Origin: Patescibacteria group bacterium
Lineage (GTDB): Bacteria > Patescibacteriota > Minisyncoccia > Phycocordibacterales > Phycocordibacteraceae
Assembly (NCBI GenBank): GCA_018826905.1
Contig: JAHJYC010000004.1
Location: 141,717-205,716 of the forward strand
Length of the DNA stretch: 64,000 bases
Direction: 5' to 3'
The translations under genes were made by a program, and so were the position numbers. Numbering within the stretch: position 1 is the first letter of the stretch; each line of letters starts with the position of its first letter. Below the pieces are notes generated by a model. The model was given only the letters and a program-made list of their open reading frames with translations, made no database searches and was not told the origin of the DNA. Below are positions 2,280-62,820 of the stretch, one piece after another.

Positions 2280-3962
2280 TTAGGCGTCCGATCGGTCAGA
2301 CAGCACGGGACCTGATGGTTTCAGTGCTGTTCCTGGCTTCAGGCGCTTTAGAGAGGCAACAAGATCTTTAAACTCTTGGTTTGCAAGTAGTGCCAGAACT
2401 GCTGCCGCTACCGTCAGTCCCACCATACCAGCAAGCGTAGCTTCAGCAAAGACAATGAAGAGCGTGGTTGCAGGAGCGAGGGAGGCGGTAAACGTAAGAA
2501 CGCCATAACTTGTTGCCCCTCCAAGAATGGCCGCCCCAAACCCTTCAAACAACGGACGAAGCAGACTCTTTGCTACTCCCGGTGCAACACTCTTTAGTGT
2601 AAGGAGTGCAATAGCTCCGGTTGCCAACTGGCCCAGGGCCGCTCCAAGTGCAATAAGAAGAATTTCAGAACCTGGCGTGTCCTCAATTCTAAACAAGGCT
2701 TCAATAAAGTACTTGAACAGTGGGAAGCTCTCAGCAAGTGCCAACGCTCCCCACGCAAAGAGAACTGAAATAATAGCTCCAACTGCTTGAATAACAAGTG
2801 GGTTCCAAGACTTTTGTGCAGCGTAAAATGCGCGTGACGCAAGCAACACAAGTCCTTGCGCAATAAGCGCTGAAACAAGTACAGCAAGGATAGCGGCAGT
2901 AAGCTTTGTTGCGTTCCAATCAAACGCTCCCGTTCCAAGTACGATGCGTACTATATGGGCACGCAATACGAGCGTAAGCACTGCAACAATGGCTGACCAA
3001 AAAATAATATGTCTAGCCGCAGCAGAGAGTGTTGATTTAAACGCTTCATACCGTTTTGCTTCCATAGACTCAGCAAGCACAGGGAATGCTGCAGTTGCGT
3101 AGGAGGCGCCTATAAGAGAGAGCGGTACTGCCTGCAAGTTACTTGCAAGGGTATAGACTGCAATACTTCCTTCACCAGTTCGTGCGGCAAGAATAGTGAG
3201 TAGCAGGGTCGTTATAGACCCCATAGCAAGCGCAAGAGAACGTGGTACAGAATCCCGTACTACCGGCCACAACAATTTTGGATCTGGGAGCGTGAGCGTA
3301 GGGACTAGCTTTGCCTGCATAAGAACAGGGACGTGGACGAGCAGATGCGCAAGTGCACCAAGCAATACACCCACACCAATTCCGGTGAGTCCAAACAGTG
3401 GATACAACACAACCGTACCGAATATGATTCCTAAATTGTAGAGAACTGGAGAAAGTGCAAATAGAACAAATCTCCTGCTAACCTGGGTTACGCTCGTAAT
3501 AATCCCCGACAATCCAAGAAGTATTGGCTGGATTAAGAGAAGACGCGTGAGCAAAACAAATGATTCGGCATGTTGAGATGTCGCTGCATTCGGGAACAAA
3601 ACAAAGATGAACGAAGGAACAAATAGTGCCAACAACAAACACAACAGTCCTCCTCCTATAAGAAGAAAGGACGCTGTTTGTGAAAGAAGTTTTCTATTTT
3701 GCTCTTTGCTTCCCCCCGTAATGCGCGGGATAAGTACGTACGCAGAAACTAGTGATGCAACGAGAGCAAACACTAAGTCAGGCACCTTAAAAGCCGCATA
3801 GTACAGATCCAATATTTCACCCGCGCCAAAACTGTGCGCAAATAATCGGTCTCGTAAGAGAGCCAGTATCTGGGAAGCCAGGGTAAGGCCCGCAAGCACG
3901 TACGCGGCCTGGTGAAGGCCGCGTACTGGTGCTGAGAGTGTTTTTAGGATTGCGCGAACCAT
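2280..3962 (-). CDS. murJ: Lipid II flippase MurJ (MviN family).
   Basis: 560-aa polytopic membrane protein. The N-terminus (LLRDRLFAHSFGAGEILDLYYAAFKVPDLVFAL) matches the MurJ/MviN signature region. Confidence 0.8.
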   Translation of the reverse strand: MVRAILKTLSAPVRGLHQAAYVLAGLTLASQILALLRDRLFAHSFGAGEILDLYYAAFKVPDLVFALVASLVSAYVLIPRITGGSKEQNRKLLSQTASFLLIGGGLLCLLLALFVPSFIFVLFPNAATSQHAESFVLLTRLLLIQPILLGLSGIITSVTQVSRRFVLFALSPVLYNLGIIFGTVVLYPLFGLTGIGVGVLLGALAHLLVHVPVLMQAKLVPTLTLPDPKLLWPVVRDSVPRSLALAMGSITTLLLTILAARTGEGSIAVYTLASNLQAVPLSLIGASYATAAFPVLAESMEAKRYEAFKSTLSAAARHIIFWSAIVAVLTLVLRAHIVRIVLGTGAFDWNATKLTAAILAVLVSALIAQGLVLLASRAFYAAQKSWNPLVIQAVGAIISVLFAWGALALAESFPLFKYFIEALFRIEDTPGSEILLIALGAALGQLATGAIALLTLKSVAPGVAKSLLRPLFEGFGAAILGGATSYGVLTFTASLAPATTLFIVFAEATLAGMVGLTVAAAVLALLANQEFKDLVASLKRLKPGTALKPSGPVLSDRSDA

Positions 3963-3977
3963 GTACGCCCGTGAGAA

Positions 3978-6404
3978 CTACTGTGCTGGGGCATTAGTTG
4001 CAGACTCATTAAGGGATCCTTGTGGAATTCCAAGTGCTCCAAGGCGCGATGGTGGGAATGGGTTTCTTCCCTGGCGAAGTGCTGCGAGATCAGCTGCAAT
4101 TGCTTCTTCATTCTCAGGTGAAAGTGCGGCAACTGTTTCAAGCTCTGCAATAGCCCTGTCATACTGGCCACTGATACCGTACATAACTCCTAGGAAGAAA
4201 CGGGCATTAGCATACTGAGGATTCAGTTCAACAGAGCGTGCAAGTGCCTGAATTGCTCCAGGATTATCTCCGTTTGCTGATCGCAAGATTCCTACCTGGA
4301 AAAGTACTACAGGGTCATTCGGTGCGAAGTACGCTGCGGCTTCAGCTGCCTCAAGTGCTTCACGTGCACGGCCCTGTTGCACTGCGAGCTGTGAGAGCAA
4401 GAAGATTGCCTCAGTGTAATCACGCTTTAGGTTAATTGCTTGCATAAGGTTCTCCTCAGCTGCTTCTGCATTTTCGTTTGCAATCTCAAGCTGAGCGAGA
4501 ACAAATGGAAGTGTTGGGTTTGTTGGGTTAAGCGCAACTGCTCTATCGTATGCAGCCTTAGCATTGTCATACGCACCTTCAATGTTAAGTGGCACAACTG
4601 TCTGGTACACGTTTCCAAGGATTGCCCAATTCTGATAGTTGTTTGGGCCAAGTCTTGTCGCAGTGAGTGCTGCTTCAATACTTCCAGAGAGTGCCTGCTG
4701 GAACTGTTGCTGTGCATCTGCAGCGGCTAGCGTGCTATCTGATGCAATGGTGTTCATACGAGCAATTCCAACACCTGCAGCAAGCTGGTATGCGCGATCT
4801 GAAGGAGCAAACAGTATTGAGCGTGCAATATCTGCTTCTGCTTCTTCTAGGTTTCCAGAAGAAAGCGCAACGGTTGCTTCAGTGTATGCAACTCCTGCAA
4901 GGTAACGCTCAATAACAACGTACGCTGCAACGATAGAGGCAAGGAGAAGCAGTGTAAGCCCAAAAACGATAATGAATCCGATGCGTGGACTGCGCGCGAA
5001 GATAACTCCCCACTCCCGAGCATTCGTTCCATAACGGAGCGAAGACACAAAGAGTCCGACTAGCAAGAACCCAGCAAGCAAAACAAGTGGTCCAGGGACG
5101 TTAAATATCGCAAGCGCAAGCACGTACAGCACTCCTGTGAAAGAAGCTGCTGAGACAAACCGCACAAACGGATCCTGTGGCATGCGCAGAAGGAGCGCAC
5201 GAAGACCAAAGAACAGGAAGAGACCAATGAAACCAAGCCATGCAAGTGCTCCTACAAGTCCTGTAGTAACAAAAGACGACGGAATGAAGCCAATGCCTGA
5301 CGTAAAGTCTATGTTCCAGAAGATGGTGTCGTTTAGACTCCTGTCTTTAAACTGAATCCACTGAGCGCCAAATGTTCCAGGCCCTGAACCAAAGAGCGGA
5401 GAGGAAGCATAGGTATGCCCTCCAATATCAAAGGTTGATTGCCATGATGGACGAACATCAACAACACTTGTTCCAAGTGCTGATACAAGCGCATTTCCAA
5501 TTGTTGATCCTCCAATGAGGAAGAAAAGTGAGATGGCGAGTACTGCGAGAGGTGCCGCGAGCGAGCTTGATGCACCTGCCTCCTCTTCAGTCTCAGTCTC
5601 AGCGAGCATGAGTGCAACTCCATCTAAATCAGAATCGTCTGCCATAGGACGACGACGCATAATCGCTTCAATAAAGAGCGCAAGCGAAACGAGCGCAATG
5701 AGAGACCACACAACTGCTGAGTTCACGAGAGCGAGCATCAAGAGACCGAGTCCTCCTCCTATAAGAAGGAGCGTGCGCTTTCGTCCGGTAACTGCAAGTA
5801 GACGAAGTGCTAGGAGGATCACGGTAACACCGAGTCCCACGAACATACCGAAGTCAGCAAATGAGCCGATTAGGTTTGTTGTCGGTGAGATAAAGCTTGG
5901 TGCAATGCGTCCAAGGACAAGAATCAGTACCTGCGCAACAAGCGTAATACCGAATACAAATGAACTTACCTTAAAGAAGGTCTGATAGCTCTGAGTGCGT
6001 CGGAACGCGAGGGCCGTAAGCGTTGCGAGCATTGCGAGAATCAATACAAAGCCAAACGTGTCTGTCTCAAGTTCAGTTCCGAAGAATCCGTTCTGAATTC
6101 CCACTCCTGAAAACAAAGATGAGAACAGATAAGCAAGCGGTACGAGCCAGAGTGCTCCAAGAAGTGGTAGTGGAGGCACAATCACATTGCCACGAGTAAG
6201 ACGCGCAAGAATGAAGAGCGCTAGCGTAACAAGTGCTCCGAGAGCAATGATAGTTACTTTCGTGTAAAGGAACGGAATTGTAATAACAGGGATAAAGGCG
6301 ACAACGCTTATTGCAAGCGTAAGAACTGCTGCCCAACTTGTGGCAACATCAAATGACAAACGCTTTGTGCGCGCCGGTCGTACTCCAGATGAATTCTCGT
6401 GCAT
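3978..6404 (-). CDS. Polytopic membrane protein with an O-antigen ligase/Wzy-like core and a C-terminal TPR repeat domain.
   Basis: 808 aa. The N-terminal ~550 aa carry about 10 TM helices of Wzy_C type. The C-terminal ~250 aa contain several TPR-like repeats (AYDRAVALNP..., ALARSVELNPQYANARFFLGVMYGISGQYDRAIAEL). Confidence 0.55.
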   Translation of the reverse strand: MHENSSGVRPARTKRLSFDVATSWAAVLTLAISVVAFIPVITIPFLYTKVTIIALGALVTLALFILARLTRGNVIVPPLPLLGALWLVPLAYLFSSLFSGVGIQNGFFGTELETDTFGFVLILAMLATLTALAFRRTQSYQTFFKVSSFVFGITLVAQVLILVLGRIAPSFISPTTNLIGSFADFGMFVGLGVTVILLALRLLAVTGRKRTLLLIGGGLGLLMLALVNSAVVWSLIALVSLALFIEAIMRRRPMADDSDLDGVALMLAETETEEEAGASSSLAAPLAVLAISLFFLIGGSTIGNALVSALGTSVVDVRPSWQSTFDIGGHTYASSPLFGSGPGTFGAQWIQFKDRSLNDTIFWNIDFTSGIGFIPSSFVTTGLVGALAWLGFIGLFLFFGLRALLLRMPQDPFVRFVSAASFTGVLYVLALAIFNVPGPLVLLAGFLLVGLFVSSLRYGTNAREWGVIFARSPRIGFIIVFGLTLLLLASIVAAYVVIERYLAGVAYTEATVALSSGNLEEAEADIARSILFAPSDRAYQLAAGVGIARMNTIASDSTLAAADAQQQFQQALSGSIEAALTATRLGPNNYQNWAILGNVYQTVVPLNIEGAYDNAKAAYDRAVALNPTNPTLPFVLAQLEIANENAEAAEENLMQAINLKRDYTEAIFLLSQLAVQQGRAREALEAAEAAAYFAPNDPVVLFQVGILRSANGDNPGAIQALARSVELNPQYANARFFLGVMYGISGQYDRAIAELETVAALSPENEEAIAADLAALRQGRNPFPPSRLGALGIPQGSLNESATNAPAQ

Positions 6405-24523: not shown

Positions 24524-24567
24524 ACCAAGTATTTATCCCTTATTTAAGTATTATGTCCCTAGTATAA

Positions 24568-24604
24568 CAAATCCCCGCTAATAGGTAGCAGGGATTTGTT
24601 GTCC
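24568..24604 (-). terminator. Hairpin (CAAAUCCCUGCUA-ccuau-UAGCGGGGAUUUG in the minus orientation) downstream of the DEAD-box helicase gene.
   Basis: A 12/13-bp stem 15-50 nt past the helicase stop with only a weak U tract; it may also act as an RNA stability element. Confidence 0.35.
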
Positions 24605-24618
24605 TCTATAGAGGGGGG

Positions 24619-44622: not shown

Positions 44623-44675
44623 ACGCTTGTCTATAAAGTGCCGAAAGGCATTTCGTAGACAAGCGTTTTACTTTA
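44623..44675. terminator. Long nested hairpin ACGCUUGUCUA-[UAAAGUGCC-GAAA-GGCAUUUCG]-UAGACAAGCGU followed by UUUUACUUUAUC; a bidirectional terminator between convergent genes.
   Basis: A perfect 11-bp outer stem with an inner stem capped by a GAAA tetraloop. It lies right after the DUF1399 stop and overlaps the stop of the downstream minus-strand gene. Confidence 0.55.
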
Positions 44676-47830: not shown

Positions 47831-49624
47831 TTACGCAGACTGGTCAAAAAGGTGTAGGTACTGCTCGTACCCTTCTTTTACCATTTCTTCTTTTGGAATG
47901 AACTTGAGAGACGCAGAGTTGGTGCAGAAACGACGGCCACCCTCCTCAGCGGGTCCGTCGTTAAAAACATGACCAACATGTCCCGCCTCACTTCGTATTT
48001 CTGTTCGGGTAGTAGAGAGTGAATTGTCCTCGTGCATCGTCACTGAATTATCATCAATCGTTCTCCAAAAGCTTGGCCAGCCTGTTCCTGAGTCATATTT
48101 GTGTGTACTTGAGAAAAGCGGTTTTCCTGTAACCACGTCCACATAGATGCCATCAGCCTTATTATCCCAATATGCATTGTTGAAGGGCGACTCGGTGCCA
48201 TTCTCAGCAACAACGTGGTACGCCAGCGGATCTAAGTTCTTTAGCAGTTTCGCAATTTCTTCGTCTGTATAGTTGTACGCATCATTTGTATCCATAGAGG
48301 TTGTTTGTTTAGATTCTAAAAATTGGATTGCTGCATCTTTTGCCCAGGTCTCTTCAACGAATCCTGCCCTGCCAGATGCTTTCTTATAGCGCTCGTAATG
48401 ATCTGCTGCTTTTTTGTAATAGTCCTGATGATACTCCTCTGCTTTGTAGAAGCTTGCGAACGGGAGTACTTCTGTCGCAATCAGCGCATCAAACACGCCA
48501 CTTGCTTCAAGACGCTCCTTAGAATCGCGCGCTATCCTTTTCTGTTCATCATTCTGATAATAAATGGCTGTCGTGTACTGGAACCCTGTATCAGCAAACT
48601 GGCCCTGCTCATTTGTTGGATCAATGTGCGACCAATAGATATCTAGTACCTCTTCTGTTGAAAGTATCTTTGGGTCATAGGTTATCTGTACTGCTTCCCT
48701 ATGGTTAGTTGTGCCCTTTGAAACAAGAAGGTACGACGCCTCTGATTCATCTCCTCCTGCATATCCTGAGACTGCATCAATGATCCCTTCTTCTTCCTGG
48801 AAGTACGCTTCGGTGCACCAGAAGCATCCACCTGCTAGGGTGATTGTCTCGTACTCTCCATTTAGCATAGCGCTCTCCTCTACAGAACTCTCTGGAGCGA
48901 ATCGCTCAATAAGAGCATTCTCAAACTGAATCGTTGCTCCGTAGCCTGAATCTAGAATGAATGTCTCAATCTTTTTGTCGTACCCGGTAAGTATGGCAAT
49001 ACCAACAAGAACAATCAGTACACCAAATACCTGCTTCACTCTCCCGGCAGTTTGCAGGTGTCCCAGTGCTTTGTTGATGAGCTGTTGCCCGAAGTACGCA
49101 ATGAGCAAAAGCGACACCGAAAGACCAAGGACAAACCCGAAGAGGTATGTAACTCCCTCTGCGAACGTTGCCGGCAAGACAGTTGCAATAATGAAGAGAT
49201 AGGTCGGCGAGCAGGTCGTAAAGACTGGCCCGAGCGCAGCCCCAATTGCGATGTCTCCCGCATAGCTTTTCTTCTGATAACCCGTACCCACGAGCTTATT
49301 ACTTGCAAGACTAAGTCTGTTTACGAGTGGAACCCTCGCCCACAAGGACGGGAACACTATGGCAAGACCAACAAGAATAAGAACCGCTCCAGAAAACCAG
49401 CTCCAGAACACTTGAGGAATATCAATAAGCAGTGTTGATGCTTTCAGCAAAAGCGTGAAGACGATGACTGAGACCGATAGCGATCCGACAACAACGAGAG
49501 CTCGTCTTGAGATATATCTTCCACCAGTTTCTGAGGCTCCAATAACTACCGGGAGAAGCGGAAGTATGCAGGGAGCTAGAACCGTGAATATTCCTGCCAG
49601 AACTGATATTCCAAAGAAAATCAT
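47831..49624 (-). CDS. msrAB: Triple fusion of a CcdA/DsbD-like thiol-disulfide transporter membrane domain, peptide methionine-S-sulfoxide reductase MsrA, and methionine-R-sulfoxide reductase MsrB.
   Basis: The N-terminal ~230 aa have 6 TM helices with the CcdA cysteines (LAPCILP, TTCSPTY). The middle region carries GGCFWCTEA (the MsrA GCFWC motif). The C-terminal region carries GTGWPSFW...RTEIRSEAGHVGHVFNDGP (MsrB SelR motifs). Confidence 0.8.
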   Translation of the reverse strand: MIFFGISVLAGIFTVLAPCILPLLPVVIGASETGGRYISRRALVVVGSLSVSVIVFTLLLKASTLLIDIPQVFWSWFSGAVLILVGLAIVFPSLWARVPLVNRLSLASNKLVGTGYQKKSYAGDIAIGAALGPVFTTCSPTYLFIIATVLPATFAEGVTYLFGFVLGLSVSLLLIAYFGQQLINKALGHLQTAGRVKQVFGVLIVLVGIAILTGYDKKIETFILDSGYGATIQFENALIERFAPESSVEESAMLNGEYETITLAGGCFWCTEAYFQEEEGIIDAVSGYAGGDESEASYLLVSKGTTNHREAVQITYDPKILSTEEVLDIYWSHIDPTNEQGQFADTGFQYTTAIYYQNDEQKRIARDSKERLEASGVFDALIATEVLPFASFYKAEEYHQDYYKKAADHYERYKKASGRAGFVEETWAKDAAIQFLESKQTTSMDTNDAYNYTDEEIAKLLKNLDPLAYHVVAENGTESPFNNAYWDNKADGIYVDVVTGKPLFSSTHKYDSGTGWPSFWRTIDDNSVTMHEDNSLSTTRTEIRSEAGHVGHVFNDGPAEEGGRRFCTNSASLKFIPKEEMVKEGYEQYLHLFDQSA

Positions 49625-49626
49625 TC

Positions 49627-50112
49627 CTACTGAATACTACCTACAAGACCTGTGAGCGTAGGGCTACCACTCCACTTCTTAATCAGATTGCCTTCAGCAT
49701 CTACCTGAACAAGTGTGTGCTGAGTTGTTACTCCATATTTCTTCTTAAGCTCTGTCTCTGTATCATAATCAAGCTTTAAGATACTCACGTTTGCAGGTAT
49801 TGCCTCTAGATTGTTCTCAATGTCCGCATTAAGTCCTCTACATGAAGGACACCACGTTGCATGAAAGAAGAGGACAACATCTCCCTCTTTAGCTCGTGCT
49901 AGCTTTTCAGGAGCGTATGCTTCGTATAACCCAGTCTTCATCATGTCCTCTCCTTTTTCCATTCCCTCCTCCGTCGACATATCCTTCTCACCTGTCTGAC
50001 TCGTTTCATCTTTCACGCTCACATCAGCACTCTTGTTCATAGATGCGTATGCAAATCCAGCAATCGCAATGAGCGCGACAACTGCAATGCTAATCCCTGC
50101 GGTTTTATTCAT
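49627..50112 (-). CDS. Membrane-anchored thioredoxin-like protein (TlpA/ResA-like), the likely reductant partner of the Msr fusion.
   Basis: An N-terminal TM helix and a WCPSC active site (FFHATWCPSCRGL). It sits 3 nt upstream of the CcdA-MsrAB gene on the same strand. Confidence 0.75.
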   Translation of the reverse strand: MNKTAGISIAVVALIAIAGFAYASMNKSADVSVKDETSQTGEKDMSTEEGMEKGEDMMKTGLYEAYAPEKLARAKEGDVVLFFHATWCPSCRGLNADIENNLEAIPANVSILKLDYDTETELKKKYGVTTQHTLVQVDAEGNLIKKWSGSPTLTGLVGSIQ

Positions 50113-50133: not shown

Positions 50134-50159
50134 CTTACTATGTAACTAATTGTAGTAAG
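50134..50159. repeat. Inverted repeat CTTACTA-N12-TAGTAAG in the thioredoxin upstream region.
   Basis: Seen directly in the sequence: 7-bp arms located about 20-45 nt upstream of the trx start on the minus strand. Confidence 0.35.
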
Positions 50160-50201
50160 CACTGAGCCAGATGTAAAGTGTACTTTACATCTGGCTCAGT
50201 G
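50160..50201. repeat. 42-nt near-perfect palindrome CACTGAGCCAGATGTAAAGT-gt-ACTTTACATCTGGCTCAGTG.
   Basis: 20-bp perfect arms. It lies between the XRE/membrane-protein operon stop and the trx-msrAB operon start, and no U tract follows in either orientation. Confidence 0.6.
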
Positions 50202-50215
50202 GATAACGAACGGTT

Positions 50216-50578
50216 CTACAGATACTTGTCGCTCCAGATACGGGTTCCGATCTTAACCAAGATCATTGCAATGAGTGCAATAACGAGCCATGGATCTACA
50301 GTGTGTGTGTACCCCTGCACAACAATGCCCAATGTCAGAACTCCTGAACCGACTAAGAACGCATTCCTCCCCGCTAGAGTACGGTGCAACCCGTCGCGTT
50401 CATCCTCTACTTTCTCTCTCAGAATAAAGCTTGAAAATACTCCAAAGAGCCCCAGGGTGACTGCGAGCATACAGATTACGATCATGTCTGGCATCCAGAA
50501 ATGGAAAGGATTGAGAAGCAGGATTGCGAGCGCAACCAGACATAGTGTGACGATGGTTTCTATAAGATTATTTTTCAT
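50216..50578 (-). CDS. Small polytopic membrane protein (DUF2975-like) that is typically paired with a YozG-type HTH regulator.
   Basis: 120 aa with 4 TM helices. It overlaps the upstream XRE gene by 11 nt. Confidence 0.45.
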   Translation of the reverse strand: MKNNLIETIVTLCLVALAILLLNPFHFWMPDMIVICMLAVTLGLFGVFSSFILREKVEDERDGLHRTLAGRNAFLVGSGVLTLGIVVQGYTHTVDPWLVIALIAMILVKIGTRIWSDKYL

Positions 50579-50780
50579 ATGAAATTCTGAATAGCTTCTC
50601 CACAGGCATTTTGAAGAAACCTGCTATTTTCAAGGCCAGTAAAATTGATGGTGTGTAGTTCCCCTTTTCTAAAGCAATAATAGTCTGCCGACTCACATTC
50701 ACTTTTGCGGCAAGCTCTTCCTGCGTCACATTCATCTGTGTTCTATAGGTACTCACTTCATTCTCTATCGTTCCTTGCAT
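50568..50780 (-). CDS. XRE-family (Cro/C1-type) helix-turn-helix transcriptional regulator, YozG-like.
   Basis: 70 aa. MNVTQEELAAKVNVSRQTIIALEKGNYTPSILLALKIA is a classic HTH_XRE. Confidence 0.75.
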   Translation of the reverse strand: MQGTIENEVSTYRTQMNVTQEELAAKVNVSRQTIIALEKGNYTPSILLALKIAGFFKMPVEKLFRISYEK

Positions 50781-50856
50781 GCGTTATGCAGTATAGTTGA
50801 GCGCAGAGCATCAGTAAAGCTAACTTTACATGCTAGAAGCAGTTTGGTTGGTGCCC

Positions 50857-61767: not shown

Positions 61768-62820
61768 ATGTTTCATCTTCTTACGCATTACACGACCGAG
61801 AGCGTTACTGCAGGACACCCAGACAAAGTCTGCGACCAAATATCAGACGCCATCCTAGATGCCTGCCTCACCCAAGACCCAAATAGCCGTGTTGCTGTTG
61901 AAACCTTTGGGAGCCACGGCACACTCATGATTGGCGGCGAGGTTACCACAACAGCCTCTGTAGATTACGAAGCAATCGCACGCGAAGTGTATGCCTCTAT
62001 TGGCTACACAGAAGACCTAGAGGTGCTCTCACGCGTTGTAACGCAGTCCGGAGACATTGCTATGGGAGTAGACACAGGAGGCGCCGGAGACCAGGGAATT
62101 ATGTACGGCTACGCAACGAACGAGACTGATCAGTATCTTCCGTTAGGTGTTGTGCTCGCCCACGGACTCGCACGAAAACTAGAGGAGCTTCGCACGAGCG
62201 GGACACTCCCCTACCTGCGTCCAGACGGAAAGACTCAGGTAACCATAAAGAATGGAGAAGTAATCACCGGCCTCACTTCAACCCAACACACTGAAGAGAC
62301 TGAACTTGAAACAATCCGTGAGGATCTAACCAAGCACCTCTTCACACCAATCCTCGGAGACCTAAGTAACATAGAAATCCTCGTAAACCCAACAGGACGT
62401 TTCGTACAAGGCGGGTTTGAGGCAGACGCAGGTCTTACCGGTCGCAAGATAATGGTAGACACCTATGGAGGACTTATGCCACACGGCGGGGGCTGCTTCT
62501 CAGGAAAAGATGCAACAAAAGTAGACCGCTCTGCAGCCTATATGTGTCGCTTTGTAGCAAAGAACCTTGTTGCAAACGGACACGCAAAGAAAGCACTCGT
62601 CTCAGTTGCCTACGCTATTGGCCGTGTTGACCCAGTTATGGTTGAAGCATTTGATGAGAACGGAAAGAATCTCTCAGAGATTGTGAACACACACTTTGAC
62701 TTCCGTCCTCTTATGATTCGCGAGCGACTTGGACTCACCCGTCCTATATTCCGCGAGACTGCCGCATACGGACACTTCGGAGTTCAGGGCCGTCCCTGGG
62801 AAGAAATTATCTCTCTTTAG
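61768..62820 (+). CDS. metK: S-adenosylmethionine synthetase (methionine adenosyltransferase).
   Basis: The signature ESVTAGHPDKVCDQISDAILDA, GGGAFSGKD-like GGGCFSGKDATKVDRSAAY, and C-terminal AYGHFG. At 350 aa it is somewhat shorter than E. coli MetK. Confidence 0.92.
   Translation: MFHLLTHYTTESVTAGHPDKVCDQISDAILDACLTQDPNSRVAVETFGSHGTLMIGGEVTTTASVDYEAIAREVYASIGYTEDLEVLSRVVTQSGDIAMGVDTGGAGDQGIMYGYATNETDQYLPLGVVLAHGLARKLEELRTSGTLPYLRPDGKTQVTIKNGEVITGLTSTQHTEETELETIREDLTKHLFTPILGDLSNIEILVNPTGRFVQGGFEADAGLTGRKIMVDTYGGLMPHGGGCFSGKDATKVDRSAAYMCRFVAKNLVANGHAKKALVSVAYAIGRVDPVMVEAFDENGKNLSEIVNTHFDFRPLMIRERLGLTRPIFRETAAYGHFGVQGRPWEEIISL

Follow-up and report, generated by a model that had tools for sequence, protein, structure and literature searches.

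A 42-nt palindrome of a Patescibacteria genome as a probable operator of a CylR2-like XRE regulator on a methionine-sulfoxide reductase promoter, lengthened into an RNA hairpin

We analyzed a 64-kb stretch of Patescibacteria DNA (in the following "the window") around a long palindrome that separates two operons. All genes of the locus are encoded on the minus strand, in the order XRE-family regulator, membrane protein, palindrome, thioredoxin-like protein, CcdA-MsrA-MsrB fusion protein and DUF924 protein. The palindrome accordingly lies where the initial annotation had put it, after the XRE and membrane genes and before a redox-repair operon. The genes and the palindrome as a whole are the following:

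50568 to 50780, minus strand: XRE/HTH_3 regulator of 70 aa, a CylR2 homologue (Pfam HTH_3, E 2.9e-13)
50216 to 50578, minus strand: membrane protein of 120 aa, predicted to have four transmembrane helices and weakly similar to DUF2178; its start overlaps with the end of the XRE gene
50160 to 50201, minus strand: full 42-nt palindrome; in the RNA of the XRE-membrane operon (minus strand) it folds into a hairpin of -33.3 kcal/mol
49627 to 50112, minus strand: membrane-anchored thioredoxin-like protein, first gene of the second operon
47831 to 49624, minus strand: CcdA-MsrA-MsrB fusion protein of 597 aa

The inverted-repeat search bore out the 20-bp perfect arms that had been claimed for the palindrome. 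They lie at 50160-50179 (CACTGAGCCAGATGTAAAGT) and 50182-50201 (ACTTTACATCTGGCTCAGTG), have 20 nt each and are 100% complementary around a 2-nt centre, which makes the palindrome the sole perfect 20-nt inverted repeat of the window. On the sense strand the hairpin starts 14 nt past the stop codon of the membrane-protein gene, and the palindrome sits 48 nt ahead of the ATG of the thioredoxin-like gene. Folding of the RNA gave the energy stated above with z = -9.8. A flanking T or U tract is absent on both sides, as had also been noted; the 8 nt past the stem contain 3 T. The window holds other intergenic inverted repeats of 20 nt, which are imperfect (85%) and resemble ordinary terminators (44623-44666, 24561-24605 and 62115-62144). 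An Rfam search returned only a spurious miRNA match with 20 bits compared to a gathering score of 82.

Within and around the palindrome, and upstream of the XRE gene, the following elements were assigned:

50171 to 50190, no strand assigned: core operator O2, ATGTAAAGT-GT-ACTTTACAT, predicted dimer site of the CylR2-like XRE protein
50812 to 50831, no strand assigned: operator O1 at the XRE gene's own promoter, ATGTAAAGT-TA-GCTTTACTG in minus-strand reading, without extended arms
50172 to 50177, minus strand: predicted -35 hexamer TTTACA of promoter P2 (trx/ccdA-msrAB), within the operator half-site
50149 to 50154, minus strand: predicted -10 hexamer TACAAT of P2, 17 nt past the -35 hexamer
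50790 to 50818, minus strand: predicted promoter P1 of the XRE-membrane operon (consensus scan), TTTACT, 17-nt spacer, TATACT
50191 to 50201, minus strand: outer arm on the 5' side of the transcript, CACTGAGCCAG, variable in sequence, its pairing with 50160-50170 kept by compensatory changes
50160 to 50170, minus strand: outer arm on the 3' side of the transcript, CTGGCTCAGTG, which runs into a T-run in most relatives and not in the window
50199 to 50207, minus strand: conserved GTTATCCAC 5' of the hairpin, overlapping the first 3 nt of the arm, found in 41 of 70 loci
50134 to 50159, no strand assigned: 7-bp inverted repeat CTTACTA-N12-TAGTAAG (arms 50134-50140 and 50153-50159), which brackets the -10 box

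Operator O1, upstream of the XRE gene, has the dyad of O2 with one mismatch. If the 64 kb were searched for TGTAAAG-N4-CTTTACA with at most two mismatches, O1 (50813-50830, upstream of XRE) and O2 were the only two matches, compared to 0.27 expected. The dyad of the upstream O1 is less perfect, which suggests that the predicted binding is weaker at the regulator's own promoter. In both operators the right half-site is at the same time the -35 hexamer, and a -10 box follows 17 nt downstream. The two predicted promoters match the consensus at 10 of 12 and 9 of 12 positions and are thereby near-consensus.

More than 1,000 relatives of the XRE protein were found, of which the best 120 share 80 to 100% identity with it; those of the 120 that are named by source are labelled Patescibacteria or Paceibacteria. 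For the comparison a set of 80 genome loci around XRE orthologues was used. The dyad occurs 47 to 60 nt before the XRE start codon in 58 of the 80 loci, and 20 to 70 nt past the membrane-protein gene, before thioredoxin-like or CcdA/Msr genes, in 70 of them. Altogether 141 motif sites were counted in 593 kb, nearly all of them at the O1 or O2 positions. Outside the search pattern, the O2 positions A-10, T-9, A+8 and T+9 are conserved to 99-100% in the 70 loci, T-2 to 87% and A+1 to 80%. As the sites were anchored on the dyad centre and these positions were not part of the pattern, their conservation defines a 20-bp element, ATGTAAAGT-NN-ACTTTACAT. A -10-like TATACT at +26 to +31 from the dyad centre is conserved as well, with TACAAT as its counterpart in the window. 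The geometry of a half-site containing the -35 hexamer, a spacer of 16-18 nt and a -10 box was found in 67 of the 70 O2 loci and 56 of the 58 O1 loci. Across the genomes that bear the circuit (about 70 at species level) the XRE protein is 60-93% identical and the membrane partner 40-83%. Where msr genes are rearranged, in two loci, extra operators accompany and follow them.

Some loci of the set depart from this arrangement. Distant Patescibacteria loci use ACTTGACA as half-site. In seven loci whose XRE orthologues are more distant (59-67% identity), the promoter of the regulator carries a pair of operators, the first on the -35 hexamer (with ACTTGACA) and the second after the -10 box, and in these seven no recognizable operator was found past the membrane gene. 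In five other loci the left half-site of the upstream operator includes the stop codon of the gene that precedes XRE (...GCGAAGTAYAAGTAA, at about 3925-3950), which is another case of overlapping signals. Two loci whose XRE protein is 90% identical to that of the window (L086 and L087) carry bAvd and reverse-transcriptase genes just upstream of XRE, the marks of a diversity-generating retroelement. In L086 the thioredoxin-like gene is followed by a DsbD_TM protein fused to DUF1254/DUF1214 in place of MsrAB.

The 7-bp inverted repeat next to the palindrome, which the initial annotation had pointed out, is present, though it stays within chance: arms of at least 7 nt appear in 11% of shuffles of comparable 44-nt stretches. 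Across 68 loci dyad symmetry does not peak at its centre (0.377, with a mean of 0.322 and an sd of 0.04), and the closest relatives lack its right arm. Readings as a conserved second operator or as a 5' hairpin were rejected, as the arm lengths of the best inverted repeats in relatives are distributed like those of shuffles. The 7-bp repeat is probably due to chance.

A search of the PDB with the XRE protein (phmmer) gave a 65-aa PbsX-family regulator (9k3w) and CylR2 of Enterococcus faecalis as the best matches of solved structure, the latter (1utx/2xiu) with E 1.5e-11 over residues 6-65. The window XRE and CylR2 have the identical sequence VSRQTI where the recognition helix begins. A literature search on PDB entry 9k3w found nothing relevant. 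PADLOC, applied to the locus, reported generic HTH models only and gave no match for the membrane protein, which leaves a defence-system reading without support. CylR2 is the repressor of the cytolysin promoter (PMC3709268) and works with a small membrane protein, CylR1, by a mechanism that is regarded as unresolved (PMC3709268, PMC5454873).

The cytolysin control region was read directly from a plasmid record. The only long palindrome therein is TTTTGTCAAGTG-T-CACTTGACAAAA, which we take to be the CylR2 site that was reportedly mapped by experiment (Rumpel et al. 2004). On the cylLL strand the cytolysin promoter consists of TTGACA within a half-site, 17 nt and TAATAT, the same geometry as in the window. 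If the half-site TGTAAAGT is compared to the cytolysin half-site TGTCAAGT, 7 of 8 positions are identical. By homology and by its half-site the regulator of the window is of the CylR2 type, with a predicted operator that overlaps the -35 hexamer.

Between the end of the XRE gene and the start of the membrane-protein gene there is an overlap of 11 nt (50568-50578), which is kept in most relatives (8 nt in locus coordinates) and suggests translational coupling. For the membrane partner 959 homologues were found, all of them unannotated. Its invariant residues are M29, P30, E55, D59-E60-R61, A69-G70-R71, D95 and W97, and according to the positive-inside rule its WMPDM and YxHxVDxW loops are outward-facing. 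A profile of 28 sequences was aligned to CylR1 by hhalign with a probability of 0.6% and E 0.089, and only the DER loop was aligned; homology to CylR1 was rejected as not significant. For the window protein hmmscan gave no match to PF09946 (DUF2178) at E up to 0.01, and weak precomputed matches are all that links it and many of its homologues to this family. A literature search on DUF2178, this circuit and msr regulation in Patescibacteria returned nothing relevant.

The product of the second operon is, as predicted from its genes, an extracytoplasmic methionine-sulfoxide repair chain. Across the loci the thioredoxin-like proteins have a membrane anchor followed by a linker that is rich in Met (8-14 per 30 residues). 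In six loci and others a linker rich in Met, Lys, Glu and Asp, with up to 11 Met per 30 residues, precedes the WCPxC domain; the thioredoxin-like protein of the window (49627-50112) is only mildly Met-rich. Three loci encode separate anchored Met-rich small proteins. Two tandem operator-promoter cassettes were found in L014 (4601-4973), the second of which drives the thioredoxin-like gene and the first a 59-aa ORF (4677-4856) with 44% Met (MMDKKMMAKEMMEMSKSMMEM...). The Met-rich linkers and small proteins may represent a sacrificial oxidant sink.

The outer arms of the palindrome behave differently from its core. The outer pairs are GAGCCAG/CTGGCTC in the window and AAACCAG/CTGGTTT or AAAGCAG/CTGCTTT in relatives at 87-89% XRE identity; in L064 the outer arms are GGGAAGGGC/GCCCTTCCC. 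For the 11 outer pairs at O2 standard pairs make up 59.2% of the cells compared to 42.1% if shuffled, and the covariation score is 0.431 compared to 0.152 +/- 0.014 (reached in 0 of 500 shuffles); if the partners were slid against each other it was 0.11-0.19. The 11 outer pairs at O1, taken as a control, gave 44.0% standard pairs compared to 41.4%, and a covariation of 0.250 compared to 0.217 (32 of 500 shuffles) and to 0.17-0.22 with slid partners. The median arm length is 14 nt at O2 and 9 nt at O1. With 20 nt the arm of the window is at the upper end of the O2 range, and only L048 and L064 have longer ones (22 nt). We further counted 30 G-U pairs versus 13 A-C mismatches, a count that is biased by the T-rich 3' arm; this excess is weak support for a function on the sense RNA.

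A stem followed by a T-run was found in 39 of the 70 O2 hairpins compared to 2 of 58 at O1. The hairpins have folding energies of -15 to -38 kcal/mol, and in three loci the element was called terminator-like. The outer arms look like a predicted operator dyad that was lengthened into an intrinsic terminator for the XRE-membrane transcript. For the hairpin of the window neither a terminator-like call nor a U-rich tract 3' of the stem was obtained; other hairpins of the window are canonical with A/T tracts. If the window is compared to L089, two A-U pairs have become G-C and the T-run is lost (3 T in 8 nt). Termination at the window copy is doubtful, since the T-run is absent and the copy was not called a terminator; it may terminate, may pause transcription or may merely stabilize the 3' end. 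The remark of the initial annotation that the stem is no normal terminator holds for the window copy, which has no T-run, but not for the relatives with their stems and T-runs. Its idea of an RNA stability or processing hairpin is in agreement with the covariation of the outer arms; a special processing element did not emerge, and the relatives resemble an ordinary T-run terminator.

Paired changes in DNA palindromes can also be produced by template-switch correction without selection on the RNA. The long perfect arms might then be a functionless by-product of such a correction, seeded by the operator as a quasi-palindrome. The exactly perfect arms of the window, the paired changes by which close relatives differ and the absence of the U tract from the window copy are in line with this explanation. 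However, O1 provides the same palindromic seed and shows no extension in 58 genomes, and the extension at O2 goes together with a 3' T-run in 39 of 70 loci and without exception follows the orientation of the upstream gene. We consider the by-product unlikely. The missing extension of O1 is an argument for selection on the arms, short of proof.

The explanation that we regard as probable is that the palindrome is an operator of the XRE protein on the promoter of the msr operon, lengthened into an RNA hairpin that would end the transcript of the regulator. What we observed are the sequences, their conservation and covariation, the promoter geometry and the homology; that the protein binds and represses, that the transcript terminates and what the signal is are inferences. 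A dimer of the 70-aa XRE protein on the central 20 bp would cover the -35 hexamer of P2 (TTTACA) and thereby repress trx/ccdA-msrAB, and the weaker operator copy O1 with its same geometry would provide autoregulation of the XRE-membrane operon. In each arm the outer 11 bp would not serve protein recognition and would extend the dyad into a long RNA hairpin, which could end or insulate the XRE-membrane transcript just before the regulated promoter P2. Transcripts from P2 would be without the hairpin, as they start beyond it. The four-helix membrane protein, which would be co-translated with the regulator, may relay an envelope signal that releases the repressor, in analogy to CylR1/CylR2. The likely signal could be oxidant damage to the conserved outward-facing Met/His/Trp loops of this membrane partner.

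The XRE protein could also bind to the core and activate the trx/msrAB promoter. GakR, a related XRE-family regulator with a 20-bp inverted repeat at its promoter, is reported to act positively (bioRxiv 10.64898/2026.09.04.749385), and the centre of the operator is located about 38 bp before the predicted transcription start. With the -35 hexamer inside the half-site, however, the regulator would have to contend with the sigma factor for these bases, both promoters are near-consensus as they stand (10/12 and 9/12), and CylR2 is described as a repressor (PMC3709268). Activation appears improbable to us.

The 20-mer was also searched in an unbiased scan of metagenome contigs, which yielded at least 120 loci, with about 102 assessable sites among the matches listed. 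At least 68 of these approximately 102 sites are within 600 bp of a CylR2-like XRE gene, and for about a third of the sites listed an XRE gene is not nearby. The matches listed include 23 sites of downstream type and 25 of upstream type. At least 17 sites precede gene pairs of a membrane protein and then a CylR2-like XRE in unrelated organisms, including high-GC ones, and at least three precede XRE fusion proteins. As the XRE gene is the common denominator of the sites, the operator was assigned to the XRE protein. In 12 contigs an identical 20-bp operator stands before such membrane-then-XRE pairs, which suggests a predicted operator code that is superfamily-wide; in many of the membrane partners therein a transmembrane helix is followed by a D/E-E-R or DER motif. 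Seven AT-rich contigs contain the 20-mer without an XRE gene within reach; it precedes either a conserved 151-aa gene (MSEKYT...), at a distance of 11 nt, or a gene for an ABC-type ATPase. These sites may be remote targets or chance matches.

A further conserved motif, GTTATCCAC, accompanies the operator. It is present with at most one mismatch in 41 of the 70 loci, where its offset from the operator centre is fixed at -25/-26, compared to 0.013 expected per locus, and no enrichment was found elsewhere in 589 kb, by which a global motif was ruled out. Compared to the DnaA box TTATCCACA (tolerance TTWTNCACA) it agrees at 8 of 9 positions in the window and at 9 of 9 in several loci. Unlike the tolerance of DnaA, its position 3 varies to any base and its position 5 is fixed. 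A role as promoter element was rejected because the spacing is unfit, both as a -35 with the operator's TAAAGT as -10 and as an antisense -10, and no conserved pairing with a downstream complement was found. A second factor could act at GTTATCCAC.

From these observations one might propose that the core is the operator of another regulator, for example a global oxidative-stress factor, and that the XRE promoter is one more of its targets. About a third of the metagenome sites listed are without an XRE gene within reach, the GTTATCCAC motif hints at a further factor, and the binding of the XRE protein to the core is itself a prediction from sequence. Yet the CylR2-like XRE gene is the sole element common to the Patescibacteria, the high-GC and the other contigs, and the promoter that CylR2 represses carries nearly the same half-site, so that we regard another regulator as quite improbable. 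The initial annotation had named an operator for the XRE regulator among its suggestions; for the central 20 bp this suggestion is supported by the O1 copy, the conservation in about 70 genomes, the association with XRE genes in metagenomes and the half-sites of the cytolysin promoter.

The palindrome might as well be purely an RNA hairpin, a terminator or 3'-end stabilizer of the XRE-membrane transcript, without any protein on the DNA. Its position right after the stop codon, its high stability, the covariation of the outer arms and the T-runs and terminator-like calls in relatives would be expected from such a hairpin. It would leave open why the 20 central bases are invariant in 70 genomes while the outer stem is free to vary, and why the 20-mer also occurs without hairpin before the XRE gene and before the XRE operons of other phyla; the A/T-rich top of the stem and the window copy without U tract speak against it too. 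A hairpin without operator function has therefore little credibility for us, about as little as the other regulator, and the operator with a superimposed hairpin is retained.

A mobile repeat of the REP or MITE kind inserted between the two operons, suggested in the initial annotation as a miniature repeat element and compatible with a long perfect intergenic palindrome, can be practically dismissed and was rejected as a dispersed repeat, as the arm sequence is a single copy in the 64 kb at up to three mismatches (0 of 100 shuffles match; no further palindrome copies, and so no multi-copy family of the REP/MITE kind, at this threshold), the exact 42-mer has 0 matches among 185,579 representative genomes, and the element keeps a fixed orthologous position with an invariant core in 70 genomes.

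If the repressor reading is combined with the chemistry of the regulated operon, a methionine-oxidation feedback loop can be drawn, in which a CylR1/CylR2-type switch would work phylum-wide in Patescibacteria and free of a phosphorelay. Envelope oxidants would oxidize the partner loops NPFHFWMPDM and QGYxHxVDxW, upon which the XRE protein would leave the operator in its own terminator. The induced thioredoxin-CcdA-MsrAB chain, with its Met-rich sacrificial linkers, would re-reduce the sensor and so reset the switch. We put this loop forward tentatively and think it doubtful in its full extent. Were it true, the TGT[A/C]AAGT dyad code would be shared by the whole superfamily of CylR2 plus membrane partner across phyla, and this would open a general way to understand the signalling of CylR1-type partners.

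Patescibacteria (CPR) have tiny genomes and few regulators, and to our knowledge almost no regulatory circuit has been defined experimentally in them. The locus offers a complete predicted circuit that is readable from the DNA in about 70 species-level genomes: regulator, membrane partner, two operators, two promoters and output operon. The circuit, a variant of the CylR2-type regulator and operator, would link such a regulator to extracytoplasmic methionine-sulfoxide repair. The transfer of the signal between CylR1 and CylR2 has been unresolved since 2002, and this question may be approached with the family described here, in which natural variants number in the hundreds and a chemical signal is plausible. 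The palindrome is also an example of how signals may be packed in a compact genome, as one sequence appears to be operator, -35 element and top of a terminator hairpin at the same time.

Several known systems resemble parts of this circuit. Extracytoplasmic repair by CcdA, thioredoxin and MsrAB has been described in S. pneumoniae (Etrx/CcdA/MsrAB2, PMC3914529), S. gordonii (PMC7034828) and F. nucleatum (PMC12288474). Common to these pathways and the window are an anchored thioredoxin-like protein, CcdA as electron conduit, and MsrA and MsrB domains; the difference is that CcdA, MsrA and MsrB form one polypeptide in the window. Two-component systems are known as regulators of the streptococcal and Fusobacterium pathways, and a pair of XRE and membrane protein is not known to control them.

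In Azospira suillum the hypochlorite defence by MrpX and MsrP is controlled by SigF/NrsF, and MrpX is a Met-rich scavenger controlled together with the sulfoxide reductase (PMC4436054). As in the proposed circuit, a membrane-coupled regulator there controls a methionine sulfoxide reductase and a Met-rich sacrificial protein, and the counterparts of MrpX in loci of the window type would be the Met-rich linkers of the thioredoxin-like proteins and the 44%-Met peptide of L014. The resemblance is functional only, as the regulator in Azospira is a sigma/anti-sigma pair and MsrP is a molybdoenzyme.

With intrinsic terminators the palindrome shares the stem-loop directly after a stop codon and, in 39 of 70 relatives, the T-run. 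It differs in that the top of the stem is an invariant A/T-rich predicted protein site and not G+C-rich, that the window copy has no U tract, and that the 3' arm doubles as a -35 element.

The closest likeness is found in CylR1/CylR2. In both systems a single-domain XRE protein of 66 to 70 aa adjoins, and is co-transcribed with, a small polytopic membrane protein, and the operator is a palindrome with the half-site TGT(A/C)AAGT, which includes the -35 hexamer; the -10 box comes after a spacer of 17 nt. The two genes stand in the reverse order, with the HTH gene first and the membrane protein second in the window. The window partner has four predicted helices and is weakly DUF2178-like, whereas CylR1 has three helices. 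The half-sites are 2 nt apart in the window and 3 nt in the cytolysin promoter. Furthermore the window has two operators, one of which follows the regulator operon and forms part of a hairpin, and the output is an oxidative-repair operon in the window as compared to a lantibiotic in Enterococcus.
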